Positions 3,414 through 18,499 of a stretch of 64,000 bases of DNA are shown here, piece after piece. The number at the start of each line of letters is the position of its first letter. The first letter of the stretch is position 1. Under the pieces are notes generated by a model. It had not been told where the DNA came from, did not search any database, and saw only the letters and a list, made by a program, of their open reading frames with translations. Source of the stretch: an uncultured bacterium (GTDB lineage: Bacteria > Electryoneota > B3-LCP); assembly GCA_964623265.1 (NCBI GenBank), contig CAZUTK010000005.1, forward strand, positions 746 through 64,745, written 5' to 3'. A program made the translations under genes and the position numbers.

Positions 3414-3421
3414 GGTTGAAG

Positions 3422-4312
3422 ATGAAAATAGGCTACTACCCCGGTTGCACTCTGAAGTCGCACGCGAGAAATTTGGAACGATCGGCGCTGCATTCGCTGG
3501 CGGTTTTGGGCGTCGAAGTGGAAGAGCTGGAACGCTGGAACTGCTGCGGAGCCGTTTATTCGCTGGCGGACGATGATTTGATCCACATTTTGGCGCCGGT
3601 GCGGGATCTCATCCGCGCCAAAGATCAGGGTTTCGATACCGTGATGACGCTCTGTTCGATGTGCTACAACACGCTGGCTCGCGCCAATTTGTTGATGAAG
3701 CACGACGAAGTCAAGCGCAAGACCATCAACACTTTTATGGAAGAAGAGAGCGATTATTCGGGAGAAGTCGAAGTCGTTCACTTGTTGAATTATTTGCGCG
3801 ACCGCGTCGGGTGGGATAAGGTGCGAGCCGCGGTGCGCCAACCGCTGCATGGTCTGAGGCTGGCACCATACTACGGCTGCACATTGACCCGTCCCCGCGA
3901 GGTTTCCATAGATCCGGCGGTGGATCCGGTCGTGTTCAAGGATTTTGTGGAAGCGCTGGGGGCGGAATACGTGGATTTCAGCCGAGCCGCGGATTGCTGC
4001 AGCTCCTATCAGATGATTTCGAATCCGGAGGCGGCGCTGGAGACAGCCGCAGGAATCATCGCTTCCGCCGAAGAAAAGCAGGCGGAGGCTCTGGTGCTGA
4101 GCTGTCCGCTTTGCGAATATAATTTAGGACGCAGGCAGGGGGATATCATCCAGAAGCATCAGGAATTGAAGCCGCTGCCGGCCTATTATTTCACTCAGCT
4201 TCTGGCGGTCGCTCTGGGGCTGGATGCCGGGATCGCGCAATTCTCGACGCATGGAGCGAATGCTTCGGGACTGCTGGAAAAAAAGGGATTCATCAAAGCG
4301 ACTTGTCTCTGA
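3422..4312 (+). CDS. hdrB: Heterodisulfide reductase subunit B-like (CCG-domain) protein. It could equally be a type-E succinate dehydrogenase SdhE / methylmenaquinol:fumarate reductase MfrE-like subunit.
   Basis: Two Cys-rich CCG-type motifs ('WNCCGAV...CSMCYN', 'YYGCT...DCCSS...LSCPLCEYN'). Size ~297 aa. It is adjacent to the hdrC-like gene. Confidence 0.6.
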   Translation: MKIGYYPGCTLKSHARNLERSALHSLAVLGVEVEELERWNCCGAVYSLADDDLIHILAPVRDLIRAKDQGFDTVMTLCSMCYNTLARANLLMKHDEVKRKTINTFMEEESDYSGEVEVVHLLNYLRDRVGWDKVRAAVRQPLHGLRLAPYYGCTLTRPREVSIDPAVDPVVFKDFVEALGAEYVDFSRAADCCSSYQMISNPEAALETAAGIIASAEEKQAEALVLSCPLCEYNLGRRQGDIIQKHQELKPLPAYYFTQLLAVALGLDAGIAQFSTHGANASGLLEKKGFIKATCL

Positions 4313-4412
4313 GGATAGAACCACGCAGGTACGTGCTGCCTGAAATAAACTTACTTAAGGAAATTTCTATCACCGGGATGAAACCCGGATCTAAGGATCA
4401 ACGAGGCGTTCG

Positions 4413-5225
4413 ATGAGCGTGAAAGAAAAGGCCGTTCAGGAACCGGAAATGCCGGTGGTGCAAGAGAATTTGATCCCCATCTATATCATGGGGAAAAGAT
4501 ACGATGTGCCGGAATCCCTGACGATCATGAAGGCGATGGAGTATGCCGGATACAAGTTCATCCGCGGCGCGGGCTGCCGCGGCGGCGTCTGCGGCGCCTG
4601 CGGGACGGTGTACCGGCTGCCGGGCGACTATCACATCCGAGTCGGGCTGGCTTGCCAAACGGTGGTGATTCCCAATATGTATCTGACGCAGATTCCGTTT
4701 TATCCCGCCAACCGCGCGGTCTTCGACTGGAACAGCATCAAGGGAGAGGCGGAGGAGGTCTATAAAGCCTATCCTGAGCTGTTTCGCTGTCTGGCGTGCA
4801 ACGCCTGCTCGAAGGTTTGTCCGATGGATATCCCGGTCATGGATTACATCGCGGCGATCAAGCGCGGGGATCTGGATAAGGCGGCGGAGATTTCGTTTGA
4901 CTGCATTCAGTGCGGATTGTGCGCCACGCGCTGCATGGGGGAGATGGCGCAGTATCACATCGCGCAGATGGTGCGCCGTTTGCGGGGCCGTTTTATCTCC
5001 AAGCCCAGCGCGCATTGCGACCATCAGGTGGAAGCCATCCGGTCGGGATATTACGACGGCTACATCAACGAATTGAAGGCGTTGGGGGCAGTGGATCCCT
5101 TCGCGGCGAAAAAAGGGGATGCAAATATCGAGAAGCTGAAGAAGCTCTACAAGGAGCGGGAAGAGGAGCCGCACACCGCGGACGATCGTTGGAAACCGCA
5201 GAGCGATTACGCTCTGTTGAAATAG
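4413..5225 (+). CDS. Succinate dehydrogenase / fumarate reductase iron-sulfur subunit family protein (2Fe-2S plus two 4Fe-4S motifs).
   Basis: A 2Fe-2S motif 'GCRGGVCGACG...C'. Motifs 'CLACNACSKVCP' and 'CIQCGLCATRC'. It is followed by the flavoprotein gene. Confidence 0.6.
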   Translation: MSVKEKAVQEPEMPVVQENLIPIYIMGKRYDVPESLTIMKAMEYAGYKFIRGAGCRGGVCGACGTVYRLPGDYHIRVGLACQTVVIPNMYLTQIPFYPANRAVFDWNSIKGEAEEVYKAYPELFRCLACNACSKVCPMDIPVMDYIAAIKRGDLDKAAEISFDCIQCGLCATRCMGEMAQYHIAQMVRRLRGRFISKPSAHCDHQVEAIRSGYYDGYINELKALGAVDPFAAKKGDANIEKLKKLYKEREEEPHTADDRWKPQSDYALLK

Positions 5226-5314
5226 GAAGACGTTGGACCGGCGCAGACCGCGCCGCACCGGCTGAGCTGCGAAGGGAGAATCAAGCCGGCGAAATTGAGA
5301 GGAAACGAGGAGAA

Positions 5315-6988
5315 ATGGGCTATCCGGACGGATTAAAGCAGTTGATCAAGAGGGTGGAAGCGACCCGCCCCGAGCGGATCGCACGCAAGAAAGCCGGTCA
5401 GGAGTTTCCGGCGTTGAGCTTGGAAGATCGGCACAAGGTGTTGCACGCTTTTCACCCGGATGTCAAGGAAGAGGGGCGCCGGGAAATCACGGTGGGTCCG
5501 AATAAGGGGTACCGAATCTGCCATGAGATGGTGGATTTGCTGGAGGCGCGCAGCCGCGTCAATCCGGATAAGATTGACCTGACGCGTTGGGATTATGAAA
5601 CGGATGTTCTGGTGATCGGCGGCGGCGGCGCCGGCACGGCTGCAGCTCTGCTGGCTCAGGAACAAGGCGCCAAGGTGATCATCGCCACCAAGCTGCGCCA
5701 CGGCGACGCCAATACGATGATGGCGGAAGGCGGCATCCAAGCCGCCACGAAAGGGTGGAAGGATTCGCCTTACTATCACTACTTGGACGTGATGGGCGGG
5801 GGCCACTTCACCAATGTGCCGGAATTGGTGGAGAAGCTGGTCACGGAAGCGCCGGACGTCATCCGCTGGCTGCTGTCGCTGGGCTGCAACTTCAGCAAAT
5901 ATGAAGACGGCACTCTCCAGACGATGCACGGGGGCGGCACCTGCCGCAAACGGATGCATTTCGCGGCGGATATCACCGGCGCGGAAATGATGCGCACCAT
6001 CCGGGACGAAGCCCGCAACCGCGTGAAGGATATCACCGTGCTGGAATTTTCGCCCGCCGTGGAATTGATTCTGAACGATAAGGGTCGCTGCGCCGGCGCG
6101 GTGCTTTACAATATGGAAACCGCCGAATACATCATCGTAAAGGCGAAATCGGTGGTGATGGCGACCGGCGGTAGCGGCAGGCTGCACGTGCAGAATTTCA
6201 TGACCACCAACCACTATGGCGCCACCGCCGACGGGATTGTCCTGGGCTATCGAGCCGGCGTTCCGGTTTGCTTTCTGCACACCATCCAATACCATCCCAC
6301 AGGCGTCATTTATCCGGAACAGGCGGAAGGCATCCTAATAACGGAGAAGTTCCGCGGCGCCGGAGCCAATCTGGTCAACGTGGACGGCGAACAGTTCGTA
6401 TTCGAACGGGAGCCTCGGGACATTGAAGCCGCCTGCATCATCCGCGAATGCGTGGAGCGGGGCAAAGGCGTGCCCACTCCGACCGGCAAGTTCGGGGTCT
6501 GGCTGGACAGCCCCATGCTGGATTTGATGTTCGGTTCGGGATATGTGAAGAAGGAGTTCCCCGGCAAGCACATCTTGTACAGCCGGTTCGGCATTGACAT
6601 CGGCAAGGAACCGATGCTGATTTACCCCACGCTGCACTATCAGAACGGCGGACTGGAGTTCAAGGCGGACGGTTCGACCCGCATTCCAGGATTGTTTGTA
6701 GCCGGGGAAGTCGGCGGAGGCGTGCACGGGGAGAACCGGCTGATGGGCAATTCCCTGCTGGACATCATGGTCTTCGGGCGCATCGCGGGGACCAGCGCCG
6801 GAAAGTATGCGCTGAATGATTTTCAGGATGGAAAGCTCACGTTGGATCACGTCAGAAAATATCACCAGGAATTAGAAAAAGCGGGAGTCGGACAGGATCG
6901 CATCGCGCCGATGCTGCTGCCGGATTATACGCTGGAGCACGTCAAGGCGAAGCAGTTGACGGCGCATTACGAGGGCACGCTTCGCTAA
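5315..6988 (+). CDS. Fumarate reductase / succinate dehydrogenase flavoprotein-like subunit, non-covalent FAD type.
   Basis: 'DVLVIGGGGAGTAAA' dinucleotide fold. 'NTMMAEGG' has Asn where SdhA carries the covalent-FAD His ('SHTVAAQGG'). 'YHPTG' active-site motif. Start chosen at ATG 5315 with RBS 'gaggag', so the annotated 4910 start that overlaps the upstream gene is rejected. Confidence 0.65.
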   Translation: MGYPDGLKQLIKRVEATRPERIARKKAGQEFPALSLEDRHKVLHAFHPDVKEEGRREITVGPNKGYRICHEMVDLLEARSRVNPDKIDLTRWDYETDVLVIGGGGAGTAAALLAQEQGAKVIIATKLRHGDANTMMAEGGIQAATKGWKDSPYYHYLDVMGGGHFTNVPELVEKLVTEAPDVIRWLLSLGCNFSKYEDGTLQTMHGGGTCRKRMHFAADITGAEMMRTIRDEARNRVKDITVLEFSPAVELILNDKGRCAGAVLYNMETAEYIIVKAKSVVMATGGSGRLHVQNFMTTNHYGATADGIVLGYRAGVPVCFLHTIQYHPTGVIYPEQAEGILITEKFRGAGANLVNVDGEQFVFEREPRDIEAACIIRECVERGKGVPTPTGKFGVWLDSPMLDLMFGSGYVKKEFPGKHILYSRFGIDIGKEPMLIYPTLHYQNGGLEFKADGSTRIPGLFVAGEVGGGVHGENRLMGNSLLDIMVFGRIAGTSAGKYALNDFQDGKLTLDHVRKYHQELEKAGVGQDRIAPMLLPDYTLEHVKAKQLTAHYEGTLR

Positions 6989-7446
6989 ATGAATGCGAGT
7001 CGCGGGATGGTGCCGCGGCGTCGCAATAAAAACAATACAAATGATTTGTTTTTATTGTCAGGATAATTGTTATAATTATATCAATATATGAAGCTGCAGG
7101 AGAATTCATTCCGAGGCGAGGCGTGGAGAAGCTCAATCCCGAAGAACAGGACGGAACGATCGGGCGACGGCAGTGCGGCATTCCGGAGAAAGGGGTGCTC
7201 TTCCTCGTCTCTACGCCCCATCCAGCGGCTCTCTGCCTTCCCTTGCCTGCGAACTGCAGACGACTTCCGGATGAACTGCAACTTCTTTTGTGATACGAAG
7301 TCTGCAAGGACTTCAACGGACGTTGAAAAAACAGCATCTTCCTGTTGAAATTCACCCGGAAATTGCATATATTGCAGGGAGACAAATAAAAATATTCACA
7401 ATACTTGTTATGATGTTAACAAAGAAGATAAAAAGAAAGTGGCGAC

Positions 7447-8988
7447 ATGGCATCCCTGAATGAACAGACCACCGTTCAGACTGAAAGAGAAAAGCCACGC
7501 GACGCTGTGGAATCCTCTCGTTCGTTCAACTTGCAGGTCATCGCGAAGAAGTTGGATTGGAAGAGAGGGTTCTTCATTTTTTTGGGTCTGGCGCTTTTCT
7601 TGGCGGTTTATTGCGCGCCGCCTTTTGCGGATGCTGTAGATCCTCAGGGAAAGCATTTCGTCCTCTCTCAGGAAGGGAAAGCCGCATTGGGGCTCTTCCT
7701 GCTGGCTTCCACCTGGTGGATTTTCGAGGTGGTTCCGATCGGCGTGACGGGGATCCTCATCGGAGTTGTGCAGGCGCTGTTTCTCATCCGCAAAGCGGAC
7801 GTCGCGTTCAGCAATTTCTTCGATCCGTCGGTCTGGTTCATCTTCGCTTCGCTGGTCATCGGCAGGACCTTTACTAAAAGCGGGCTGACGCAGCGTATGG
7901 CGTATAATATGCTGGTGATGGTCGGCGAGAAGACCAGCATGATCTATCTGGGGTGTTTTGCGCTGATCGCGCTGCTCACGCTGCTGATGGCTCACACCGC
8001 CGTAGCCGCCACGGTCTATCCGCTTCTGGCGGCGATTTATTCCTTGTATCAGGAGGACAACCAGCCCACCCGTTTCGGCAAGGGGTTGTTCATCGGGATG
8101 GCGTTCGTGGCTGGGGCCGGCAGCATCGTGACGCTGTTGGGCGCCGCTCGCGGCGCCGTCGCCATCGGCTTCTTCAAGGATATGGCGGGACGGGAGATTT
8201 CGTTTGCGGAGTACACCTATTACCAGCTCCCCATCGGATGGATTATGGTTCTGCTGCTTTGGGCGTTTTTCATGATCTTCTTCAAGCCAGAGCGGAAGAC
8301 CATCCCGGGACTGCGCGAACGGGCGAGAGGGCTGGCGGCACGGCTGGGTCCGATGAAGAAGGTGGAATGGCAGACTCTGATCATCGTTCTGGCGGCGATT
8401 CTCATTCTCAGCCTGAGGTCTTTTATACCCGCCTTGATGCCGTTGGACAAGACGGGCATCATTCTGGTGACCACGCTGCTATTTTTCCTTCTGAAGATTC
8501 TGACGCTGCAGGATCTGGAGGAGATTCCTTGGAACATCATATTGCTTTTTGGCGGAGCGATGAGCATCGGCTTTTGCCTCTGGCAGACGGGGGCGGCAAG
8601 CTGGCTGGCTGTGCATTGGTTGACTTTGTTCCAACATGCGCACTGGTTTCTCTTCATCATGGGCATCGCCTTTTTCGTGTTGATCATGACCAATTTCATT
8701 ATGAATGTGGCGGCGATCGCCATTTCGATGCCGATCGCTCTGGTGATCGCTCCCTACCTTGGTGTAGCGCCGGAAATCGTGCTCTTCGCTTCCCTGGTGA
8801 CGGCGGGTATGCCCTTTATGTTGTTGATCGGGGCGGCGCCCAACGCCATAGCCTACGAGAGCAGACAATTCACATCTGCTGAATTTTTGCGCGCCGGGAT
8901 CGTCGCCAGCGTCTTGCTCCTGCTGGTGTTGGGAGTATTCATTCTGGTGATCTGGCCTCTGATGGGGATGCCGGTTCTGGCGAAGTGA
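7447..8988 (+). CDS. Anion permease of the ArsB/NhaD superfamily (DASS/SLC13-like); likely a di/tricarboxylate or other anion transporter.
   Basis: Multi-TM protein of 513 aa. The C-terminal hairpin motif 'GAAPNAIAY' is paralogous to the permease domain of the 11317 gene ('GTPNNAIAF'). It sits at the head of the signalling operon. Confidence 0.55.
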   Translation: MASLNEQTTVQTEREKPRDAVESSRSFNLQVIAKKLDWKRGFFIFLGLALFLAVYCAPPFADAVDPQGKHFVLSQEGKAALGLFLLASTWWIFEVVPIGVTGILIGVVQALFLIRKADVAFSNFFDPSVWFIFASLVIGRTFTKSGLTQRMAYNMLVMVGEKTSMIYLGCFALIALLTLLMAHTAVAATVYPLLAAIYSLYQEDNQPTRFGKGLFIGMAFVAGAGSIVTLLGAARGAVAIGFFKDMAGREISFAEYTYYQLPIGWIMVLLLWAFFMIFFKPERKTIPGLRERARGLAARLGPMKKVEWQTLIIVLAAILILSLRSFIPALMPLDKTGIILVTTLLFFLLKILTLQDLEEIPWNIILLFGGAMSIGFCLWQTGAASWLAVHWLTLFQHAHWFLFIMGIAFFVLIMTNFIMNVAAIAISMPIALVIAPYLGVAPEIVLFASLVTAGMPFMLLIGAAPNAIAYESRQFTSAEFLRAGIVASVLLLLVLGVFILVIWPLMGMPVLAK

Positions 8989-9024
8989 CAGTTCGCTTAC
9001 GGCGGGATAACTGCGCATATCGGG

Positions 9025-10707
9025 ATGGCGGAAGAATCGAAAAACACCGCGACGGCGGGCGGCAGGATCCTCCGGGATCGGTATTATCGGGAACTGCTGC
9101 GCAAGAATCTGTTGCGTCTGGCGTTCACCTATCTCGCCCCTCTCGTTCTCCTGACCATCTATTTTTACGCGCAATATGTGAATATATCCCGGGAGAGCCG
9201 GGCGCACCATCTGAAATCCGTGGCGGAGCATCAGGCGAATACTCTGGATCTGTTTTTGAATGAGCGCGTCGTCAATCTCGCCAATTTGATTGACGATCCC
9301 AAGTTGAAGATTCCGCCAACCGGCGGCGCGATGGAAGTGATGCTGCACCAGTTGAAGAAAAACAGCGATACATTCACGGATGTGGGTTTTTTCGATTCGA
9401 CCGGCGTGCAGCTCGCCTACGAAGGTCCCTTGCCTTTTTTGGAGAACCGAAATTATTCCACGGAACCGTGGTTCGTCCGCTTGCGGGGGAAGGACGATCA
9501 CTTCATCATTACGGATAACTATCTCGGATTCCGGCAAAAGCCGCATTTCACGATTGCGGTGAGCCGCGAAATTCAGAATCGCTACGTGGTATTGCGCGCG
9601 ACGTTGGATCCGCAGAAGTTTTATGAATACGTCATTGCGCAAGAAGGCTTGAGCGATGTGGATTTGTCGGTGGTCAACCGCGATGGGATCTATCAATTGG
9701 TGTCGCCGAAGATCGGGCTGCCGTTGGAGAGCTCATCGGTAGTGCCGCCGTTGTCGCCGCGCCTGGGCTGGTTGAATTCCCGCGGGGAAGCGAACTCGGG
9801 GGAATTCGCTTACGCCTGGCTGCGGAACGCGGATTGGGCGGTCATCGCCAGACCCTCTGGAGAGAGCGAAAAGATTCCTCTGTTCAGCAGCCGAATGGGG
9901 ATTCTAGTCTTTTCCGCCGTGATCATTTTCGGCGTGCTGTCCGTGATCGTCATCCGTTCGAAGAAGCTGGTGGAGCTGCAGATTGAGAAGGAGATTACCA
10001 AGGCGCAGTTCGAACATGCCGCCAAGCTGGCGTCCGTGGGGGAGTTGTCCGCCGGCATCGCGCACGAGATCAACAATCCGCTGGCGATCATCGCGGAAGA
10101 GGTCGGATTGATCAAAGACCTGATGAATCCGGAGTTCAAGACGGGCACCGCCTTCGAGGATTTAAAGCCTCACCTCGACAACATCCACGACGCGGTCTTC
10201 CGTTGTCGCGACATCACCCGCAAGCTGCTGAGTTTCGTGCGCAAGACGGACATCAAGCTGAAGCCGCACCACATCAATATGTTGATTGACGAAATCGTGG
10301 ATGCCTTCTGGATACGCGAGATGGAAGTATCCAACATCGTCATAGAGAAGAGATACGCCGCGGATCTGCCGGAGATCGTTACGGACGGGAATCAGCTCAA
10401 GCAGATCTTTTTGAACATTCTGAATAACGCCGCGGACGCAATCACTCCGCCCGGAAAGATTACGATATCCACCTCCTATGCGGATGACCACATCTCCGTC
10501 GCCATCTCGGATACAGGCAAGGGCATCACTCAGGAACAGATGGAGAAGATTTTTCTTCCGTTTTATACGACCAAGGAACCGGGGAAGGGCACCGGTTTAG
10601 GGCTGTCGGTGAGCTACGGGATCGTGAAGAGTCTGGGGGGGAAGATCCTGGTCGAAAGCATTCCGGGGAAGGGGAGCGTTTTCACGGTGGTGCTGCCGGT
10701 AAAATAG
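9025..10707 (+). CDS. Sensor histidine kinase with a periplasmic Cache-like domain between two TM helices.
   Basis: H-box 'AGIAHEINNPLAII', N/G-box region 'LNILNNAADA...DTGKGI...GTGLGLSV'. Two hydrophobic segments flank a ~250 aa extracytoplasmic domain. Paralog of the 15285 kinase. Confidence 0.8.
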   Translation: MAEESKNTATAGGRILRDRYYRELLRKNLLRLAFTYLAPLVLLTIYFYAQYVNISRESRAHHLKSVAEHQANTLDLFLNERVVNLANLIDDPKLKIPPTGGAMEVMLHQLKKNSDTFTDVGFFDSTGVQLAYEGPLPFLENRNYSTEPWFVRLRGKDDHFIITDNYLGFRQKPHFTIAVSREIQNRYVVLRATLDPQKFYEYVIAQEGLSDVDLSVVNRDGIYQLVSPKIGLPLESSSVVPPLSPRLGWLNSRGEANSGEFAYAWLRNADWAVIARPSGESEKIPLFSSRMGILVFSAVIIFGVLSVIVIRSKKLVELQIEKEITKAQFEHAAKLASVGELSAGIAHEINNPLAIIAEEVGLIKDLMNPEFKTGTAFEDLKPHLDNIHDAVFRCRDITRKLLSFVRKTDIKLKPHHINMLIDEIVDAFWIREMEVSNIVIEKRYAADLPEIVTDGNQLKQIFLNILNNAADAITPPGKITISTSYADDHISVAISDTGKGITQEQMEKIFLPFYTTKEPGKGTGLGLSVSYGIVKSLGGKILVESIPGKGSVFTVVLPVK

Positions 10708-10736
10708 AGAAGAAGAAATAAAGGGAGAGGCCGGTT

Positions 10737-11312
10737 ATGGCATTGGAGAGAGTGAAAGATATCATGTTGTCTCTGGACGACTACGCCGTCGTGGGGATGG
10801 AAGCCACGATGGTGGATGCGTTGTGCGCTCTGGAGGCGGCGCAGAAGAAACTTCCGCCGGATCGCCAGCCCCATCGCGCCGTTCTGGTGGTGGACGACAA
10901 GGGCAACATCGTCGGGAAGTTGGGGCATCTGGCATTCTTGAAGGGACTGGAGCCGAAATACGACAAGATCGGCGACATCAACGTGCTTTCCCGCGTCGGA
11001 CTCAGCCAGGAATTCATCAATTCCATGCTGGACAATCTGAGTCTCTGGAAGGAGAGCTTTGAGGATTACGTGCAGCGGGCTCGCAGGACGAAGGTGAAAG
11101 ATGTGATGCACTCGGTTGTAGAGAGCATCTCAGAAGACGCGCCGTTAAGCGAAGCGGTGCATAAACTGGTCATGTATCAGACCCTATCCCTGCTTGTCAC
11201 TCGGGGCGAAAAGGTCGTTGGGATATTGCGGCTGTCCGATCTCTTTTCCGTGATCGCGCATATCATTCGGAAGAAAGTTGGCTGCGGTGAAGAAACAAGC
11301 CAGGAGAAGTGA
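10737..11312 (+). CDS. CBS-pair domain protein (stand-alone).
   Basis: Two CBS-like repeats across ~190 aa. No other domain is evident. Confidence 0.5.
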   Translation: MALERVKDIMLSLDDYAVVGMEATMVDALCALEAAQKKLPPDRQPHRAVLVVDDKGNIVGKLGHLAFLKGLEPKYDKIGDINVLSRVGLSQEFINSMLDNLSLWKESFEDYVQRARRTKVKDVMHSVVESISEDAPLSEAVHKLVMYQTLSLLVTRGEKVVGILRLSDLFSVIAHIIRKKVGCGEETSQEK

Positions 11313-11316
11313 CCCT

Positions 11317-13389
11317 ATGCCGAAAGTGCTGCTAATTGATGATGAGGACAAGTTTCGGACGTCCCTTGCCGACCGCCTCAAACTGCGAGGATATGCGAAC
11401 ATCGCCTTGAACAGCGGTACGGACGTCGTCAAAATCATCCGCAAGGATCCTGAGATTGATGTTGTGGTGCTCGATCGTCAAATGCCGGGCATCAGCGGGG
11501 AGCAGGTATTGCGAGAGATCAAGCAATACCGTCCCGAGTTGCAGGTCATTATGCTGACGGGGTACGGCAGTGTGGCGTCGGCTATGGAAACCGGGCGTCT
11601 GGGCGCTTTCGCCTACCTCGAGAAGCCCTGCGATTTCGACCAGTTGATCGAAACGATCGAGCGGGCGCGCAAGGACAAGGCGCGTGTGCTGGAGAAATAC
11701 GAGATCGCTGAAATCCAGAAGGATTCCCTCCTGAAATGGTGCTGGGGCAGACACAATTACCGTCCGGGGATCATCCTGTTGGGCGTTCTGATTTTCGCCG
11801 CAACGATTCTGATGCCCACTCCGCGCAGGCTGATCGAGATTCTCTCCACTCCGAAGCGGGCTCAAGTTCTAAATCCCACGACGGGCAAGATGGTGGATGA
11901 TCCCAGCGATCCGATCACCGGCTATGCGAGTTTCCGGAAGATGAAGGCGGGGGAGTCCATCGCCGAGTACTACAGTCGTTCCAATAAGCTGGAGAAGACC
12001 GTCAGGGACGAATTCGGCAAGAAGGTGGAGGTGCGCACTCTGACCGCGCAGGAAGCCGCCGTGAAGGCGAAAGTGATGCTGGGGACGCTCTTCGTGGCGG
12101 CGCTTTTCTGGGCGACGGGCGCCATTCCCATCGGCATCACCGCGCTGGTGGTGGGCGTCTCGATGTACTTCATGGGCGTGATGCAGCCGGATGACATTGC
12201 ACAGGCGTACGCCAAGGATGCGGTGATCTTCATCTTCGGGGTGCTGGCGGTGGCGATCGCCATCAGCAAATCCGGTCTGGACAAACGCATCGGGCTATTG
12301 CTGCTGGGACCTTCTAAATCGCTGCCGCGATTGATGTTCTTGTTCCTGCCTATGATTGGGATCGCCTGTTCCTTCCTCTCGGAACACGCGCTGGTGGCGT
12401 TCATCATGCCGCTTTTTATGTTCGTCTACGCAGCTTCCGTGCGGGAGGCGGGGGTCGAGGAGGACGCGCCTCTTGCGGTGATGCTGGTGCTGTCGCTCTG
12501 TTTCGCCGCCAACTGCGGCGGGCCCGGCTCGCCGGCGGCCGGGGGGAGAAACGCCGTGATGGTGGCGATTCTAAGTGATTACGGGGTGGCGCCGTCTTTC
12601 GCGCAGTGGGTGAAATTGGGTCTGCCCTATGTGCCGGTGATGTCGCTGGTCATCGCCACATACTTTTTTCTCGTATTTCGGGGGAAAATCAAGGCGAAGA
12701 AGTTGAATGTCTCCTCGATGGTCAAGCAGGCGGCGGCGAAGATCGGGCCGATGAATCGAAATGAATACATCACCGCCGTGATTCTGATCTTGTTGATCAC
12801 CCTCTGGATCACCGCCAGCGATAAGCTGGGGATGGGCGGTCCAGTGATCCTGGCGCTGGTGCTCTTGAATATTTTCCGGATCGTCACTTGGGGGGACATC
12901 ACCAAGATCCACTGGGAAGTCGTGGCGCTGTACGCCAGCGCCAGCGCAATGGGTAAGGGGCTTGCCGTCACCGGTGCGGCTCTGTTCATGGCGGATGTGT
13001 TCGTCGGGTGGTTGCCGGAATTTCTGCGGACCGGTACAGGATTGGCAGTCGCCAGCAGCATCTTCACAGGGATCACCACTCAGTTTATGAGTGACGGGGC
13101 GACGGTATCCGCCATCGGGCCGGTGGTGGTGCCGATGGCGACGCTGACGGGCACGCACCCTTGGATGGTGGGCTTGGGGGCGGCGTTCGCTTCGTCTTTC
13201 GCGCATATGATGATCATCGGCACACCCAACAACGCCATCGCCTTCACGATGGCAAGAGACCCGGTCACCGGCAAGCAGTTGGTGACATTAGGGGATTTCT
13301 TCAAGCATGGCTTTGTCGTCCTGCTGCTATCCTGGGCGGTGCTCTGGATCTGGCTGTTCTACGGGTACTGGCGCTGGATCGGGTTTTAA
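11317..13389 (+). CDS. Fusion of an N-terminal response-regulator receiver domain to a C-terminal ArsB/NhaD-superfamily (DASS-like) anion permease.
   Basis: REC motifs 'KVLLIDDE', 'VVVLDRQMPGISG', 'IMLTGYGS', 'AYLEKP' in the first ~125 aa, then ~560 aa with 10+ hydrophobic segments ending in 'IIGTPNNAIAF'. The ATG at 11317 has RBS 'caggagaag' and lies directly after the upstream stop. Confidence 0.7.
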   Translation: MPKVLLIDDEDKFRTSLADRLKLRGYANIALNSGTDVVKIIRKDPEIDVVVLDRQMPGISGEQVLREIKQYRPELQVIMLTGYGSVASAMETGRLGAFAYLEKPCDFDQLIETIERARKDKARVLEKYEIAEIQKDSLLKWCWGRHNYRPGIILLGVLIFAATILMPTPRRLIEILSTPKRAQVLNPTTGKMVDDPSDPITGYASFRKMKAGESIAEYYSRSNKLEKTVRDEFGKKVEVRTLTAQEAAVKAKVMLGTLFVAALFWATGAIPIGITALVVGVSMYFMGVMQPDDIAQAYAKDAVIFIFGVLAVAIAISKSGLDKRIGLLLLGPSKSLPRLMFLFLPMIGIACSFLSEHALVAFIMPLFMFVYAASVREAGVEEDAPLAVMLVLSLCFAANCGGPGSPAAGGRNAVMVAILSDYGVAPSFAQWVKLGLPYVPVMSLVIATYFFLVFRGKIKAKKLNVSSMVKQAAAKIGPMNRNEYITAVILILLITLWITASDKLGMGGPVILALVLLNIFRIVTWGDITKIHWEVVALYASASAMGKGLAVTGAALFMADVFVGWLPEFLRTGTGLAVASSIFTGITTQFMSDGATVSAIGPVVVPMATLTGTHPWMVGLGAAFASSFAHMMIIGTPNNAIAFTMARDPVTGKQLVTLGDFFKHGFVVLLLSWAVLWIWLFYGYWRWIGF

Positions 13390-13406
13390 GAGAAAGTGAG
13401 AGAAAG

Positions 13407-13895
13407 ATGCCGGACAAAATCAAACTGCTCATCGTGGACGATGAGGTGAAATTTCTCGATTCCATCGCACAACGTTTGGAGATGCGCGGGCTGCATGTGA
13501 CCAAGGCGAGCAACGGGCAGGACGCCGTGCAATTCGCCCGCAATCAGAAGTTCGATCTGGCGCTGCTCGATCTGAAGATGCCCGGGATGGACGGCAAGCA
13601 GGTGCTGGAAATCCTGAAGAAGGAACACAAGCACATCGAGGTCATCATCTTGACGGGGCACGGATCGCTGGAATCCGCCGTGGAATGCACGAAGCTAGGC
13701 GCCTACGGATATCTTCCCAAACCCTATGAGCTCGACAGTCTGCTGGAGATTCTGAAAGAAGCCTATGAAGCCCGCCTGAAGAAGAAATTCGAGTTCGATC
13801 AGGAGAGGATGGAGAAGATTATGAAGCTGGCGACCGGCAGCAGCCCACTGGGTATCCTGCGATCTCTGCGGGAACTGGATGATGACGAAAAATAA
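13407..13895 (+). CDS. Stand-alone response regulator receiver (CheY-like) protein.
   Basis: 'KLLIVDDE', 'LALLDLKMPGMDG', 'IILTGHGS', 'YLPKP'. There is no output domain. Confidence 0.8.
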   Translation: MPDKIKLLIVDDEVKFLDSIAQRLEMRGLHVTKASNGQDAVQFARNQKFDLALLDLKMPGMDGKQVLEILKKEHKHIEVIILTGHGSLESAVECTKLGAYGYLPKPYELDSLLEILKEAYEARLKKKFEFDQERMEKIMKLATGSSPLGILRSLRELDDDEK

Positions 13896-14028
13896 GACAT
13901 GGGAGCGGCGTTTTTATCGGCAGATCGGAACCCTTCCGGGCTGATGCGAAGTTCACTTATTGAGTATGCGGGGCGAGTTCAGGCTCCGATTTCAACCGGC
14001 GACGATTTAAAAGACGGGGAGAGGACAG

Positions 14029-15288
14029 ATGGCGGTCATAGCTCTGTTCAGCGGATCCTACTGCCACGGCGAAGAGGCGGCGGAAGCCCTGGCGAAAAAA
14101 CTGGGATATCCGTGTATCGAAAAGCAGGTGCTCGCCGAGACGGCTAGCCGGTACTCTCTGTCAGCGGACAAGATTCAGAGGGCGATTCAAGGTCCTCCGC
14201 CGCTTTTCGCCTCCAAATATCATCGGGAAAGGACGGTGATACTGTCCCGTTTGAAAGCGGTGCTGGCGGAATTCATCCAGCCGGATCGGGTGATCTGCCA
14301 TGGGTGTCTGAGCCATCTGATTTCCCGGGACATCACTCATGTCCTGCGGGTGCTCCTCATCGCCAATCAGGATTACCGCGTGCAGACGGCGATGACCGCC
14401 GCGAAACTCTCCCGAAAAGAGGCGGTCAAGCAGATCAAGAAGGACGATGAGGCGAAGGCGCAGTGGACGCAGTTGTTGTTCGAAAAAGCGCCTTGGGATC
14501 CGAGCCTTTACGATATCGTGCTCCCCATGCATGAGACTTCGGTTGAGGAGGCGGTTCGGATTATCGCCGAAAACAGCGCTAAAGAGGCCGTAGCGACGAC
14601 TTCGCAATCTCGGCAAGCCGCCGCGGATTTTCTGCTTCAAGCCCGCGTTGAAACGGCGCTGGGCGAAAAAAGCGACGGGCTGGAAATCCGGTGCACGGAC
14701 GGGCAGGTTACACTTGTGATCAACAAGACCGTCCTGCGGCTGGATCCATTTCAGGAAGAAATCCGGCAGATCGCTGCTGCGGTTCCCGGAGTGAGAAAGG
14801 TGGAGACGAAAGTGGGTCCGAAGTTCAATCAGCCCAGCATCATCCGCGATGTGGATCTCGAGTTGCCGAAGAAGGTTCTTCTGGTGGACGACGAAGTCGA
14901 GTTCGTGCATACTCTTTCGGAGCGGTTGCAGACCCGCAATCTGGGATCGTCCGTCGTGTACGACGGGGAGCAGGCGCTGAATTTCGTCGCCACGGAGGAG
15001 CCCGAAGTGATGGTGCTGGATTTGAAGATGCCCGGGATTGACGGCATTGAAGTTCTGCGCCGGGTCAAGCACGACCATCCCAATGTGGAGGTGATTATCC
15101 TGACGGGACACGGATCGGAGCGGGAGGAGGCGTTGGCGAAGGAGCTGGGGGCTTTTGCTTATCTCCATAAGCCCGTCAACATTGACGTGCTGGCGAAGAC
15201 GATGAAGGAAGCCTATCGCAGGATCAGCGAGAAGAAGGCGTCCGCGGGCGGTGAATCCGGGAAGAGCTCCGCGAATTCGTCATCGTGA
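14029..15288 (+). CDS. Three-part fusion: cytidylate-kinase-like family N-terminal domain with a degenerate P-loop, a BON-like middle segment, and a C-terminal REC domain.
   Basis: N-terminal 'IALFSGSYCHGEEAAEALAKKLGYPCIEKQVL' resembles the Cytidylate_kin2 family but lacks the GxxGxGK/GSGG P-loop. C-terminal 'KVLLVDDE...VMVLDLKMPGIDG...IILTGHGS...YLHKP' is a REC domain. Confidence 0.55.
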   Translation: MAVIALFSGSYCHGEEAAEALAKKLGYPCIEKQVLAETASRYSLSADKIQRAIQGPPPLFASKYHRERTVILSRLKAVLAEFIQPDRVICHGCLSHLISRDITHVLRVLLIANQDYRVQTAMTAAKLSRKEAVKQIKKDDEAKAQWTQLLFEKAPWDPSLYDIVLPMHETSVEEAVRIIAENSAKEAVATTSQSRQAAADFLLQARVETALGEKSDGLEIRCTDGQVTLVINKTVLRLDPFQEEIRQIAAAVPGVRKVETKVGPKFNQPSIIRDVDLELPKKVLLVDDEVEFVHTLSERLQTRNLGSSVVYDGEQALNFVATEEPEVMVLDLKMPGIDGIEVLRRVKHDHPNVEVIILTGHGSEREEALAKELGAFAYLHKPVNIDVLAKTMKEAYRRISEKKASAGGESGKSSANSSS

Positions 15289-16997
15289 GTCAACCTATGC
15301 CTTTCGCATCCGCGCAAAGAGACGATTCCGCCGCCGAGAAATCGGTGCACGGCGAACAGACGCGCTACCGTCGGCTGTGGTGGTATTCCGTGATCCTGAT
15401 GGCGCTGGTTTCGCTGACGCCGCTGGTCATCCTGACCTTCGTCAACATCCACCAGGCGCAGAAAGCCATCCGCGAGGAGATGCGTTTCCCCATCGCGCGG
15501 CTGTTGTCCAATACCAAGAAGGCGCTGGAGTTCGTGATTGCGGAGCGGAAATCCGCTCTGCGGCTGGTCATCAGCGAAAAAGCATATGAGGAGCTGGCGA
15601 GCGATGAGGGGCTGGCGCAGGCTTTCAATAACCTGAAGGAATCGTTCGGCGGGTTCGTGGATCTCGGGCTGGTGGATGCAGATGGCAATCAGAATTTCTA
15701 CGTTGGACCCTATGACCTGAAAGGCAAGAACTACCGGGACCAAGCCTGGCTGCACGAAGTGCGACTGCGCGACGTGTACGTCAGCGACGTCTTTATGGGC
15801 TTCCGGAATTTTCCTCACTTCATCATCGCCGTCAAGCAGAACTCCGCGCGTGGCGGATCTTACGTCCTGCGCGCGACGATTGATATGCACCTTCTCAACC
15901 AGCAGATCACCGCTCTGGATCTGGGACCTTCCAGCGACGTTTTCATCGTCAACGCCGACGGTATCCTGCAGACCAATTCCCGCTTCCACGGCAAGATTCT
16001 CGAACCCTGCACGATCCCGCTTCCCAAGTATTCCGACACCGAAATGATCCAGGAGTTTACCGAGAAGGGTCAATCTTTTCTTCTGGGCTACGCGTTCATC
16101 GAAAAATCGCCGTTCATTCTGATGATCATCCAGAATCAGAAGGATTTGATGCCGAACTGGCTCGCCCGCCGGCAGGATCCCTTCTGGTTTCTGGCGGGCA
16201 GCAGCGTTCTGATTTTGCTGGTTGTACTGGGGGTTTCCACCTATACGGTGCATCGGATCCGCAGCGCCGACATCCGCCGGGCGAAGGCGTTTCACAATCT
16301 GGAATATACGAACAAGATGGCGTCCATCGGGAGACTCGCCGCCAGCGTGGCGCATGAGATCAACAACCCCATCGCCATCATCAATGAGAAAGCCGGATTG
16401 CTGAAGGATATGGCGACCCTGACGCCTGATTTCACGCAACGCGAGAAGGTGCTGAAATTGTTGGATTCCATCCACAATTCGGTGGAACGTGTCAGCACCA
16501 TCACGCATCGTCTGCTGGGATTTTCCCGGCGGATGAACGCGCACATGGAGCTGATTGACCTGCCGTCTTTGCTGAAGGAAGTCCTGAGTTTTCTGGGCAA
16601 GGAGCTGAGCCATCGCAACGTTTCCGTCACCTTCGAGGTTCCGGATAATTTTCCGGCGGTGGAAAGCGACCGCGGGCAACTGCAGCAAGTGTTCCTGAAT
16701 ATCATCAACAATGCGATCGCCGCGATCAAGGAAGGCGGCTGGATCCGATTCACTCTGCTGGAGGTGGAGGCGGGCGGGGTGGCGGTGAAAATCTGCGACA
16801 ACGGCACAGGGATTTCCCCGGAGGATCTGAAACACATCTTCGAGCCTTTCTTCTCCACCAAGGGGGAATTCGGCACAGGACTGGGTCTTTCCATCACCTA
16901 TGACATCATCAAGAAGCTGGGGGGGGAAATTCAGGTGGAGAGTCAGCTGGGGAAGGGAACCTGTTTCACAATCTTATTGCCGCGTCAGAAGGCTTAA
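15285..16997 (+). CDS. Sensor histidine kinase with a Cache-like periplasmic domain; paralog of the 9025 kinase.
   Basis: 'ASVAHEINNPIAII' H-box, 'LNIINNAIAA...DNGTGI...GTGLGLSI' ATPase motifs, TM helices 'LWWYSVILMALVSLTPLVIL' and 'FWFLAGSSVLILLVVLGV'. GTG start overlaps the upstream stop. Confidence 0.8.
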   Translation: MSQPMPFASAQRDDSAAEKSVHGEQTRYRRLWWYSVILMALVSLTPLVILTFVNIHQAQKAIREEMRFPIARLLSNTKKALEFVIAERKSALRLVISEKAYEELASDEGLAQAFNNLKESFGGFVDLGLVDADGNQNFYVGPYDLKGKNYRDQAWLHEVRLRDVYVSDVFMGFRNFPHFIIAVKQNSARGGSYVLRATIDMHLLNQQITALDLGPSSDVFIVNADGILQTNSRFHGKILEPCTIPLPKYSDTEMIQEFTEKGQSFLLGYAFIEKSPFILMIIQNQKDLMPNWLARRQDPFWFLAGSSVLILLVVLGVSTYTVHRIRSADIRRAKAFHNLEYTNKMASIGRLAASVAHEINNPIAIINEKAGLLKDMATLTPDFTQREKVLKLLDSIHNSVERVSTITHRLLGFSRRMNAHMELIDLPSLLKEVLSFLGKELSHRNVSVTFEVPDNFPAVESDRGQLQQVFLNIINNAIAAIKEGGWIRFTLLEVEAGGVAVKICDNGTGISPEDLKHIFEPFFSTKGEFGTGLGLSITYDIIKKLGGEIQVESQLGKGTCFTILLPRQKA

Positions 16998-17010
16998 GCG
17001 GGAGAGCACG

Positions 17011-17382
17011 ATGCAGAAAATCCGCGTCCTGTTGATTGACGATGAAGAGGAATTGGTTTCCACGCTGGTGGAACGTCTGGATATCCGCGGCGTGCAGGCG
17101 GAGTGCGTCACCAACGGGACGGAGGCGTTCGCACGATTGCGGGAGTCGTCTTTCGATGCAGCGGTTATTGATTTGAAGTTGCCGGGGATGAGCGGCATTG
17201 ATGTGATGAAGAGGATCAAATCGGAGCACCCTGAAATGGTCATCCTGTTGACCACCGGTCACGGATCCGTCAGCGAAGAGCACGAGGGAATTCCGCCGGA
17301 AGCCGCAGATGTTCTTTACAAGCCGATTGACATCGAAGTCCTCGTATCTAAATTGAAAAGCTCTCTGCGGGAGGGGAAGTGA
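17011..17382 (+). CDS. Stand-alone response regulator receiver protein.
   Basis: 'RVLLIDDE', 'AAVIDLKLPGMSG', 'ILLTTGHGS', 'LYKP'. 123 aa. Confidence 0.75.
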   Translation: MQKIRVLLIDDEEELVSTLVERLDIRGVQAECVTNGTEAFARLRESSFDAAVIDLKLPGMSGIDVMKRIKSEHPEMVILLTTGHGSVSEEHEGIPPEAADVLYKPIDIEVLVSKLKSSLREGK

Positions 17383-18071
17383 CGGAATCGAAGGCGAGAG
17401 AATGGCTTAACGAGCGCGGACTGGCGTTTTTCGGGAAGATCACCGCCAGCGTCACTCATGAGTTGAACAACGTGATGTCCATCATCGAGCAGGTTTCCGG
17501 GTTGCTGGACGACCTCTGCGCGGGTGCCGAGAGCGGCAGGCCGCTGGAGCCCGAGAAAATCCGGGGGATTTCCGAGCGGATCGGCAAACAAGTGGAACGC
17601 GGGGTGAGTATCATTCAGAGGATGAACAAGTTCGCTCACAGTGTGGACGAACCGGTCAAGAACTTCGACCTCGTTGAGCTGACGGAGAATCTCGTGGAGT
17701 TGTCGCGGCGATTCGCGGGATTGCGCAAGCTGAAGATCGAGTGGCGCCCCCCCGATGCTCGCGTGATGCTTGTAAGCAAGCCCTTCCTGCTGGAGCAGGT
17801 TATTTTCATGGGGATAGATGCGGCGATGCAGAGGTCCCGCCGGGAGGGTGTGATCCGGATCGAGGTCCAGCCGGATGCTGCGGGGGCGCGCGTCGGGATC
17901 TCGACGGAGGCGGAAGCCGACGCGGAGACCGGGATTCCGGATGCGACGGATTCCGATTTTGCGGCGTTACTCTGCGCCGAACTGGCGGCGGATCTGAAAG
18001 CCGGCGCGGCGAACGGGAAATGGAACTGGGAACTTCTGCTTCCTAATTTCAGCGCGGAGGTATCGAAATGA
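17379..18071 (+). CDS. Histidine-kinase-like protein with an intact H-box but a degenerate or absent ATP-binding catalytic domain. Candidate phosphotransfer or phosphatase module.
   Basis: 'ITASVTHELNNVMSII' DHp H-box. The downstream region lacks N, G1 (DxGxG) and G2 (GxGLGL) motifs. There is no TM segment. It overlaps the flanking genes by 4 nt on each side. Confidence 0.5.
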   Translation: MTESKAREWLNERGLAFFGKITASVTHELNNVMSIIEQVSGLLDDLCAGAESGRPLEPEKIRGISERIGKQVERGVSIIQRMNKFAHSVDEPVKNFDLVELTENLVELSRRFAGLRKLKIEWRPPDARVMLVSKPFLLEQVIFMGIDAAMQRSRREGVIRIEVQPDAAGARVGISTEAEADAETGIPDATDSDFAALLCAELAADLKAGAANGKWNWELLLPNFSAEVSK

Positions 18072-18499
18072 GCGATGGAAAAGTGCTGCTGGTGGATGAC
18101 GAGATCGAGTTCACGCAGGCTCTGGCGGAAAGGCTGGAGACGCGGGGGCTGAAGGTGGATGCCGTCAGCAGCGGAAAGGATGCTCTGCAGAAAGCGAAGG
18201 GGGGATCCTACGACGCGGTTTTTCTGGATTTGGCGATGCCGGAAATGGACGGCATCGAAACGCTGAAGAGACTTCTGGCGGAGAATCCCGATCTGCAAGT
18301 GGTGTTGTTGACCGGCCATGCGACGGTGCAGTCGGGGATTCAGGCGGTCAAGCAGGGAGCGATGGATTTTCTGGAGAAGCCCGCCAAGCTGGATGTCATC
18401 CTGGAGAAGATCAAGCAGGCGAAGACCAACCGGATTCTCCTGATCGAGAAGCAGAGCGAAGAGAAGATCAAAAAGATCATGGGGAAGATGGGCTGGTGA
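18068..18499 (+). CDS. Stand-alone response regulator receiver protein.
   Basis: 'KVLLVDDE', 'AVFLDLAMPEMDG', 'VLLTGHAT', 'FLEKP'. Confidence 0.8.
   Translation: MSDGKVLLVDDEIEFTQALAERLETRGLKVDAVSSGKDALQKAKGGSYDAVFLDLAMPEMDGIETLKRLLAENPDLQVVLLTGHATVQSGIQAVKQGAMDFLEKPAKLDVILEKIKQAKTNRILLIEKQSEEKIKKIMGKMGW

Follow-up and report, generated by a model that had tools for sequence, protein, structure and literature searches.

In a 64,000-nucleotide stretch of DNA from an uncultured bacterium (GTDB lineage Bacteria; Electryoneota; B3-LCP; GenBank assembly GCA_964623265.1, contig CAZUTK010000005.1, positions 746 to 64,745 of the forward strand; hereafter "the window", numbered from its first nucleotide), a single open reading frame (ORF) encodes a complete response-regulator receiver domain (REC) at the N-terminus of a permease with the DASS fold (VcINDY/SLC13-like, residues ~149-690). 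On sequence grounds, we propose with moderate confidence that this protein, which we call REC-DASS, is a response regulator whose output would be a DASS-fold secondary transporter, and that it would work within a self-contained module of four genes that controls transport post-translationally. The domains, the conserved catalytic and switch residues, the DASS fold, the altered binding-site motifs and the conserved gene cassette are seen directly in the data; from these we infer phosphotransfer, which way control runs, what the second receiver and the CBS protein of the module do, and the substrate.

Architecture of the fusion protein

The reading frame runs without interruption from 11317 to 13389 on the + strand and specifies 690 amino acids (aa). 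We placed its start at the ATG at 11317, which has an AGGAG 8 nt on its 5′ side and agrees with the start in every homologue; the longest form of the ORF would begin with a TTG at 11278. The product matches the Pfam families Response_reg over residues 4-114 (81.4 bits with a cutoff of 30.2, covering model positions 1-110 of 111) and Na_sulph_symp over residues 249-681 (123.4 bits with a cutoff of 27), and also CitMHS (84 bits). The original prediction, made from the letters and their ORFs without database searches, had expected a scan with hidden Markov models to mark the domain boundaries, as these three matches do. The NCBIfam DASS subfamily model TIGR00785 scores 172.8, under its cutoff of 198.6. 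An AlphaFold2 (AF2) model of the monomer, with a predicted local distance difference test (pLDDT) of 87 and a predicted template-modeling score of 0.78, was read together with alignments and hydropathy to divide the protein into the following parts (TM, transmembrane helix):

11317..13389, + strand: REC-DASS fusion protein, 690 aa, stop codon included
11317..11673, + strand: receiver domain, residues 1-119, (beta-alpha)5 fold (Pfam, AF2, conservation)
11674..11760, + strand: cytoplasmic linker, residues 120-148 (AF2, alignment)
11761..11826, + strand: permease TM1, residues 149-170 (hydropathy; AF2 helix at 150-165)
11827..12045, + strand: structured TM1-TM2 insertion, residues 171-243, ~73 aa (AF2)
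12046..13386, + strand: DASS core, residues 244-690 (alignment to VcINDY, Foldseek, motifs)
12379-12387, + strand: invariant DASS-core motif S355-E356-H357
12541-12552, + strand: invariant DASS-core motif G409-G410-R411-N412
13090-13098, + strand: invariant DASS-core motif S592-D593-G594
13219-13233, + strand: invariant DASS-core motif G635-T-P-N-N639

A simple linker of ~40 aa between the two halves, as originally described, is thus replaced by a linker of ~30 aa, TM1 and a structured insertion of 73 aa, after which the Pfam-recognized core begins. The linker aligns without gaps at a mean column identity of 0.74 and ends in a conserved juxtamembrane motif, S137-x3-W141-x2-G144-x-H146-N147-x-R149-P150. 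In two shorter relatives (P0153 and P0123), the Pfam DASS model begins directly after REC and spans the TM1 helix. The insertion between TM1 and TM2, which by DASS topology should be extracytoplasmic, matched no known fold.

Recurrence of the fusion

A search of 5.8 billion proteins returned 1953 matches to REC-DASS, and the best 120, which we examined, are all full-length REC+DASS proteins of 655-692 aa with 64-90% identity, drawn from NCBI, JGI, ENA and Logan assemblies. The protein of the window itself is recorded in an NCBI assembly. When one genome per GTDB species was scanned, a relative turned up in 268 of them, and the matches in the best 80 of these are all full-length (58-75% identity). 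The same fusion therefore exists well outside the window: the protein clusters that carry it number at least 120, and the species-level genomes at least 80. All of these genomes are metagenome-assembled (MAGs), and three are complete or near-complete chromosomes (CP070796, CP070685 and OY769902). Their labels include Zixibacteria, Ignavibacteria, Calditrichota, Acidobacteriota, Planctomycetota/Phycisphaerales, Thermodesulfobacteriota, Fibrobacteria, KSB1, Myxococcota, Krumholzibacteriia and Kapabacteria. The chance that two separate genes were joined here by a sequencing or assembly error is accordingly next to nil: the continuous ORF, free of any stop or frameshift at the junction, recurs as the same full-length protein of 677-690 aa in independent assemblies, the three chromosomes among them, which excludes such an artefact and confirms the junction as genuine.

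In the databases the fusion carries the automatic labels "SLC13 family permease", "response regulator" and "histidine kinase". The last of these, found on some entries, is a misannotation, as the protein has no HisKA, HATPase or SLC5 domain by Pfam. Our literature search found no description of a REC fused to a DASS/SLC13 transporter, although a passing mention in a census or an entry in TCDB or InterPro is still possible. The claim that the architecture is an undescribed family thus holds as far as the papers searched go, but the protein is abundant in metagenomes and generically annotated in databases.

Conservation of the receiver

The receiver is complete and CheY-like, as originally recognized. 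All the residues named at that time are present: the acidic D8-D9-E10, the phospho-acceptor D53 (11473-11475) in VVVLDRQMPG, T81 in LTGYGS and K103-P104 in EKP, to which we add the aromatic switch residue Y100. Across 120 homologues, D53, T81, Y100, K103 and P104 do not vary, and the conservation of D8, D9 and E10 is at least 90%, which indicates selection for a working phospho-switch. Helix alpha4 is likewise strongly conserved (S88, A89, G93). AF2 predicts the alternating strands (E) and helices (H) of the fold, E3-7/H11-23/E27-31/H34-43/E47-53/H61-71/E76-81/H86-94/E99-102/H107-119, and Foldseek aligns this domain to solved receiver structures with target-normalized TM-scores of 0.8-0.93. 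The closest solved receivers, both by sequence and by structure, are those of NtrC1 and DctD (1zy2, 1ny5, 1l5y), which match residues 1-137.

A conserved four-gene cassette

The fusion gene is the third of four genes that follow each other in the order dCache kinase, CBS-pair protein, REC-DASS and single-domain receiver, with gaps of 29, 4 and 17 nt. Its three partners are:

9025..10707, + strand: sensor histidine kinase, 560 aa; two TM flanking a periplasmic dCache_1 domain, then HisKA and HATPase_c (Pfam)
10737..11312, + strand: stand-alone CBS-pair protein, 191 aa; Pfam CBS at residues 120-174
13407..13895, + strand: single-domain receiver, 162 aa; 41% identical to the fused receiver

The kinase is the presumed phosphodonor for the fused receiver, and the single-domain receiver has a conserved C-terminal helical tail of ~45 aa. 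Using a gene-context script, we compared 86 fetched loci, 74 of which had enough flank. A kinase homologue lies directly upstream in 68 of the 74 and the CBS protein directly upstream in 62; some Acidobacteriota loci have no upstream CBS gene, and one locus (L062, 4836-5998) has two tandem copies of it upstream of REC-DASS. The second receiver follows directly downstream in ~79 of 82 loci, once over-long ORF calls had been corrected by inspection. The cassette is conserved while the flanking genes vary from locus to locus. In a Zixibacteria chromosome it adjoins dsrC/dsrMK-like genes, and other settings include an RND pump, a hydrogenase together with more two-component genes (in a KSB1 MAG), and a peptidase with NAD synthase. 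No DNA-binding regulator was found within the cassette in the annotated loci of the main family, which leaves the transporter as the only recognizable output there.

The kinases had been likened to DctB and DcuS, a resemblance that did not hold up, as the sensor domain of the cassette kinase has no significant sequence match to the solved DctB, DcuS or CitA structures and no informative solved relative. The CBS protein occurs only as a stand-alone protein among its best 120 homologues, with no fusion to REC or DASS. In an alignment of the five receivers encoded in the window, the two from the cassette were not separated from those of a second signaling module downstream. A promoter and terminator scan of positions 6900-14200 returned sites no more frequently than shuffled sequence did, and this applies equally to a promoter-like site at 7345-7373.

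Fold, binding site and probable substrate

Foldseek matches the membrane domain to NaS1, NaCT, NaDC3, VcINDY, DiT and Pho90, with E values down to 4e-16 and target-normalized TM-scores of 0.7-0.8, and more weakly to ArsB (E 1e-8). In the model, the domain takes on the DASS elevator fold, in which a scaffold is combined with a transport domain containing two hairpins. The original assignment to a DASS/ArsB-NhaD class can therefore be narrowed: the permease is DASS-like and not ArsB-like (E ~1e-16 to 1e-13 versus 1e-8 for ArsB).

Among solved structures, VcINDY is the best match by sequence (E ~5e-21). In the HMMER alignment of the two proteins, "ISNTA" of VcINDY corresponds to "LSEHA" (S355-E356-H357) and "ASNTA" to "MSDGA" (S592-D593-G594), while "GSPPNA" corresponds to "GGRNA", which holds R411, and "ATPPNA" to "GTPNNA". 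The two Ser-Asn-Thr (SNT) motifs at the hairpin tips, which bind Na+ and the anion in VcINDY/SLC13, are thus not present in REC-DASS; SEH and SDG stand in their place and are invariant, and an equally invariant Arg411 is placed in the TM5 break. This exchange removes the hallmark of Na+/carboxylate (and Na+/sulfate) SLC13-type sites. At the same time, the invariance of the transport motifs indicates that selection maintains a working binding site in the membrane domain. Many unfused relatives share the S-[ED]-H / GGxRN / S-D-G signature.

What such a site might carry can be approached from its residues. Two carboxylates, a histidine and an arginine would suit a small oxyanion that is carried together with cations or protons. 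By analogy with described carriers (see below), we take sulfate or another small inorganic oxyanion, transported together with a cation, to be the probable substrate. A C4-dicarboxylate is, judging from the motifs, probably not the substrate. The organic anion or C4-dicarboxylate first suggested for this permease is thus not supported, given that invariant SEH and SDG motifs replace SNT and that the closest described clusters are read as sulfate uptake systems (PMC11887813). Rfam matched nothing in the 64-kb window, and hence no riboswitch that might hint at a ligand.

Divergent lineages and alternative fusions

Beyond the main family, clustering at 50% identity separates deeper REC-DASS lineages, represented by P0121 (55% identity to the window protein), P0123 (46%), P0128 (37%), P0153 (34%) and P0139 (33%). 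In a rough neighbor-joining tree of the membrane domains, fused and unfused proteins are intermingled, together with a USP-DASS protein (P0129), and P0153 falls into a separate clade, suggesting that the fusion was gained or lost more than once. The cassette is rearranged in several of these lineages: P0153 has all four parts in the order CBS, REC-DASS, REC and histidine kinase, P0139 has the CBS gene downstream of REC-DASS, and P0128 (L093, 2-4554) has a NarX-like kinase with PAS and HisKA_3 domains upstream and CBS downstream.

Two proteins depart further from the main architecture. P0124 (L091, 6001-7980) is a pseudo-receiver-DASS protein in which the receiver fold is kept, while the acidic pair has become N-C and the acceptor Asp has become Glu. 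Its locus contains another DASS and a Usp gene, and no kinase, second receiver or CBS gene nearby. Intact receivers with kinases and a degenerate one without form the pattern expected if the intact receiver is phosphorylated. P0129 (L087, 131-2209, on a contig of 2.5 kb) carries a Usp domain at its N-terminus in the place of REC, joined to a DASS that is 48% identical to the window protein, and so represents another regulatory head within this transporter clade.

P0123 (NCBI MDY6825311.1, "SLC13 family permease") belongs to a larger cluster in a Thermodesulfobacteriota MAG (L092), which comprises three DASS genes, three kinases (two with dCache), eight single receivers, a REC-CBS fusion, Cytidylate_kin2 and Usp. 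The window holds a complementary set, in which the CBS protein is separate, one REC is fused to DASS and another is fused to Cytidylate_kin2 (14029-15288). The exchange of USP for REC and the REC-CBS fusion speak for REC, CBS and USP being physically coupled to members of this transporter clade. In these alternative fusions, receivers are joined in one chain with the transporter, with CBS and with a P-loop protein, which suggests that the whole cluster family works at the protein level.

Proposed mechanism and alternative readings

In the mechanism that we propose, the membrane kinase (9025-10707) would sense an extracytoplasmic small molecule through its dCache domain and phosphorylate D53 of the receiver at the cytoplasmic N-terminus of the transporter. 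The T81/Y100 switch would then alter the alpha4-beta5-alpha5 face of the receiver, and the two receivers of the obligate DASS dimer would pair, or dock under the membrane domain, in a different way. This change might be relayed through the juxtamembrane motif (S137, W141, G144, H146, N147, R149, P150) to the scaffold helix TM1, where it would enable or block the elevator movement and thereby switch transport post-translationally. The single-domain receiver (13407-13895) could compete for phosphoryl groups, as a sink or a timer, and the CBS-pair protein (10737-11312) could add an intracellular adenosyl-ligand or energy input. Direct gating by a two-component kinase, rather than transcriptional control, had already been put forward in the original prediction. 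It stands as the most economical reading, since a kinase and a second receiver flank the gene in nearly all loci; the gating itself is inferred.

Several points weigh against this picture. The linker through which the signal would travel is modeled at low confidence (AF2 pLDDT 63-70). The argument from the pseudo-receiver comes from one locus only (P0124). In the P0128 lineage (L093), the gene for a REC-GerE regulator of the NarL type is adjacent to the cassette and convergent with it, making a transcriptional output possible there; the pathway of this lineage may branch, with one output through transcription and another through the transporter. For an anion site, it is unusual to have acidic residues at both hairpin tips, and the assignment of sulfate leans on an analogy to carriers that are themselves only putatively sulfate-transporting. 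For the related clusters of sulfate reducers, transcriptional control has been proposed, with regulators called "WalR-type" (PMC11887813). Finally, the single-domain receiver may be the real signaling output, with the fused receiver serving only as a sink.

This last point leads to the main rival, which we consider unlikely: occupancy of, or flux through, the DASS domain would tune how readily its own receiver accepts phosphate, and the single-domain receiver would act as the true output on a partner, so that the fusion would be a co-sensor, as DctA or DcuB is for DcuS, hard-wired through the receiver. Transporter/kinase co-sensing is well established for DcuS with DctA/DcuB, and the single-domain receiver is indeed the most constant partner of the fusion. 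It is also a close paralogue of the fused receiver, as expected if one kinase serves both, and its C-terminal tail could bind a target. The cassette, however, encodes no such target, the invariant T81/Y100 pair and the conserved linker leading to TM1 agree with a receiver acting on the domain to which it is attached, and a conserved juxtamembrane linker would be needless for a pure sink. A receiver that is a structural or constitutive appendage, serving stability, dimerization or placement close to the kinase and exerting no control over transport by phosphorylation, would explain why P0124 keeps a receiver-like domain devoid of phospho-acceptor residues, as the fold can evidently persist unphosphorylated. 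We nevertheless regard it as very improbable, given the invariance of D53, T81, Y100 and K103 and the acidic pair conserved at 90% or more among the 120 homologues, the kinase gene adjacent in 68 of 74 loci, and the absence of a kinase from the degenerate lineage, as expected if intact receivers are phosphorylated.

A different alternative concerns the substrate, namely that the protein is a Na+/C4-dicarboxylate (organic anion) transporter under a carboxylate-sensing kinase of the DctB/DcuS type. The dicarboxylate carrier VcINDY is its best solved sequence match, JGI auto-annotation names it "sodium-dependent dicarboxylate transporter 2/3/5", dCache domains often bind carboxylates, and genes for a fumarate-reductase-like flavoprotein and for Fe-S/CCG proteins lie upstream in this genome. 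We judge this reading improbable, though less so than the appendage. Both SNT motifs of VcINDY are replaced by the invariant SEH and SDG and an invariant Arg occupies the TM5 break, the TIGR00785 score stays under its cutoff, the kinase sensor has no significant match to the DctB, DcuS or CitA structures, and the flavoprotein neighborhood is missing from the other annotated loci. Furthermore, the related clusters in sulfate reducers have been read as encoding sulfate carriers (PMC11887813).

Comparison with known systems

REC-DASS shares its fold with VcINDY and the SLC13 carriers NaS1, NaCT and NaDC1/3, which are Na+-coupled elevators (Foldseek E 4e-16 to 1e-13). The sequence alignment with VcINDY spans TM2 to the C-terminus at an identity of only 21-23%, and the GxxxxPxN-type breaks in TM5 and TM10 are kept as "GGRNA" and "GTPNNA". 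REC-DASS differs in having SEH/SDG for SNT/SNT, the added Arg411 and the extra 73-aa insertion between TM1 and TM2; moreover, VcINDY and the SLC13 members have no receiver domain, and no solved chain spans both the REC and the DASS part.

Regulatory domains at the N-terminus of DASS carriers have a precedent in fungi. In the phosphate carriers Pho87, Pho90 and Pho91, such a domain tunes transport, and this domain, SPX, senses inositol pyrophosphate. These SPX-DASS proteins likewise combine the DASS fold with a cytosolic N-terminal regulatory domain, and the membrane domain of Pho90 is a structural match to that of REC-DASS (8r33-8r35). They differ in being eukaryotic, in having no kinase partner and in the regulatory domain itself, as the fusion has no SPX match in Pfam.

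On the receiver side, NtrC1 and DctD match REC-DASS including the helix after alpha5, but their output is an AAA+/sigma-54 activator domain, and in REC-DASS this helix is not predicted by AF2 to continue into TM1. Receivers of the NtrC1/DctD type act by changing their dimer through the alpha4-beta5-alpha5 face, a mode of switching that suits a transporter that is an obligate dimer. Two-component proteins fused to a secondary-transporter domain are also found among the SLC5/STAC kinases CbrA, CrbS and RpuS (PMC9100948, PMC5715377). The SLC5 transporter-like domain of these proteins is a kinase input and the output is a DNA-binding regulator, whereas in REC-DASS the transporter belongs to the DASS family, is joined to the receiver and would itself be the output. 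Separate precedents thus exist in SPX on Pho90, in the transporter domains on kinases such as CbrA and CrbS and in DcuS-DctA co-sensing, and the fusion combines known ideas.

Among described systems, the closest in gene content is the putative DASS-type sulfate transporter/two-component/CBS cluster of sulfate-reducing Desulfobacteraceae. A 30.5-kb cluster of Desulfosarcina variabilis encodes abundant "DASS-type sulfate transporters" (Dvar_38230 and Dvar_38430), many two-component systems and CBS proteins, and related clusters occur in 26 sulfate reducers (PMC11887813, Science Advances 2025). Sulfate transport by the Dvar proteins was inferred from their abundance and expression, and it was suggested that the Cache kinases sense sulfate and the CBS proteins APS or ATP (PMC11887813). 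Like the window, these clusters combine DASS permeases with Cache kinases, several receivers and CBS proteins, and USP is found both in them and in L092. Unlike in the model proposed for sulfate reducers, the transporter here carries a receiver and the cassette contains no DNA-binding regulator. The gene categories of the published figure are DASS, kinase, regulator, USP, CBS and "response regulator with CBS domain", with no receiver-transporter fusion among them (PMC11887813). Yet L092, from a Thermodesulfobacteriota MAG, is exactly this type of cluster and holds a REC-DASS fusion.

Implications

Two-component systems are mostly understood as transcriptional switches; where an output other than transcription is known, it is an enzyme, a motor or a proteolysis adaptor. 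We know of no characterized transporter that is gated by a receiver domain of its own, nor did the literature searched yield one. If phosphorylation of D53 controls transport, an extracellular signal would act rapidly and directly on solute flux, which a histidine kinase could switch within seconds and with no involvement of gene expression. It is tempting to go further and to regard REC-DASS as a new class of response-regulator output, with a secondary transporter as effector, and the DASS/two-component/CBS/USP clusters as post-translational networks for the uptake of oxyanions such as sulfate; we put this wider claim forward tentatively, as a plausible reading that may well turn out to be wrong. 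If it were true, the fusion would be a Rosetta stone for the clusters of sulfate reducers and of many uncultured anaerobes, in which receivers would be fused to the transporter, to a CBS pair or to a kinase-like P-loop domain, or would stand alone. Control through D53 would also open to experiment the question of how anaerobes, with DASS clusters that are rich in kinases, receivers and CBS proteins and contain no obvious transcription factors, regulate their uptake of sulfate or other oxyanions. With its four genes, the module is compact, widespread in environmental bacteria and directly testable.

Other genes in the window

Upstream of the cassette, 36 nt before the kinase gene, lies a second DASS permease, which is preceded by a block of three genes:

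3416-4312, + strand: CCG-domain protein, upstream of the stand-alone DASS
4413-5225, + strand: 4Fe-4S protein, upstream of the stand-alone DASS
~5315-6988, + strand: flavoprotein, best NCBIfam match thiol:fumarate reductase subunit TfrA, upstream of the stand-alone DASS
7447..8988, + strand: stand-alone DASS permease, 513 aa (Pfam, NCBIfam)

The stand-alone permease was originally called a paralogue of the fused one. Both do belong to the same Pfam family, but their identity is only 26% and the binding-site motifs differ, reading AHT and MNV in the stand-alone protein, so that its sequence is that of an old paralogue and not of a recent copy. It lies outside the conserved cassette, being absent at L001, L004, L005 and L006, and may share the cassette transcript in this genome. 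The block at 3416-6988, which may hint at the substrate of this permease, is kept in L002 and is not found beside the cassette in other loci.

Directly downstream of the cassette, a second signaling module occupies 14029-18499 on the + strand, again without a DNA-binding output:

14029-15288, + strand: Cytidylate_kin2 (P-loop kinase-like) domain fused to a receiver
15285-16997, + strand: second dCache kinase, 32% identical to the kinase at 9025-10707
~17017-17382, + strand: receiver
17379-18071, + strand: 230-aa protein without a Pfam match
18068-18499, + strand: further receiver

The mechanical ORF of the first stand-alone receiver in this module (16900-17382) overlaps the kinase gene (15285-16997) by ~100 nt; its homologue in L002 has 121 aa, which places the true start near 17017. 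The block also follows the cassette in L002 and L003, two loci with 90% identity, and a stand-alone Cytidylate_kin2 gene is present in L092. Elsewhere in the window, hallmarks of type IX secretion, which like the closest genomes in the species scan fit an FCB-group (Zixibacteria-like) host, occur at 33-2675, 31740-38090, 44015-48172 and 57861-60512; they are an SprA-like protein of 2116 aa and three large peptidases (C13, gingipain-like C25, and S8) with Por_Secre_tail sorting domains.

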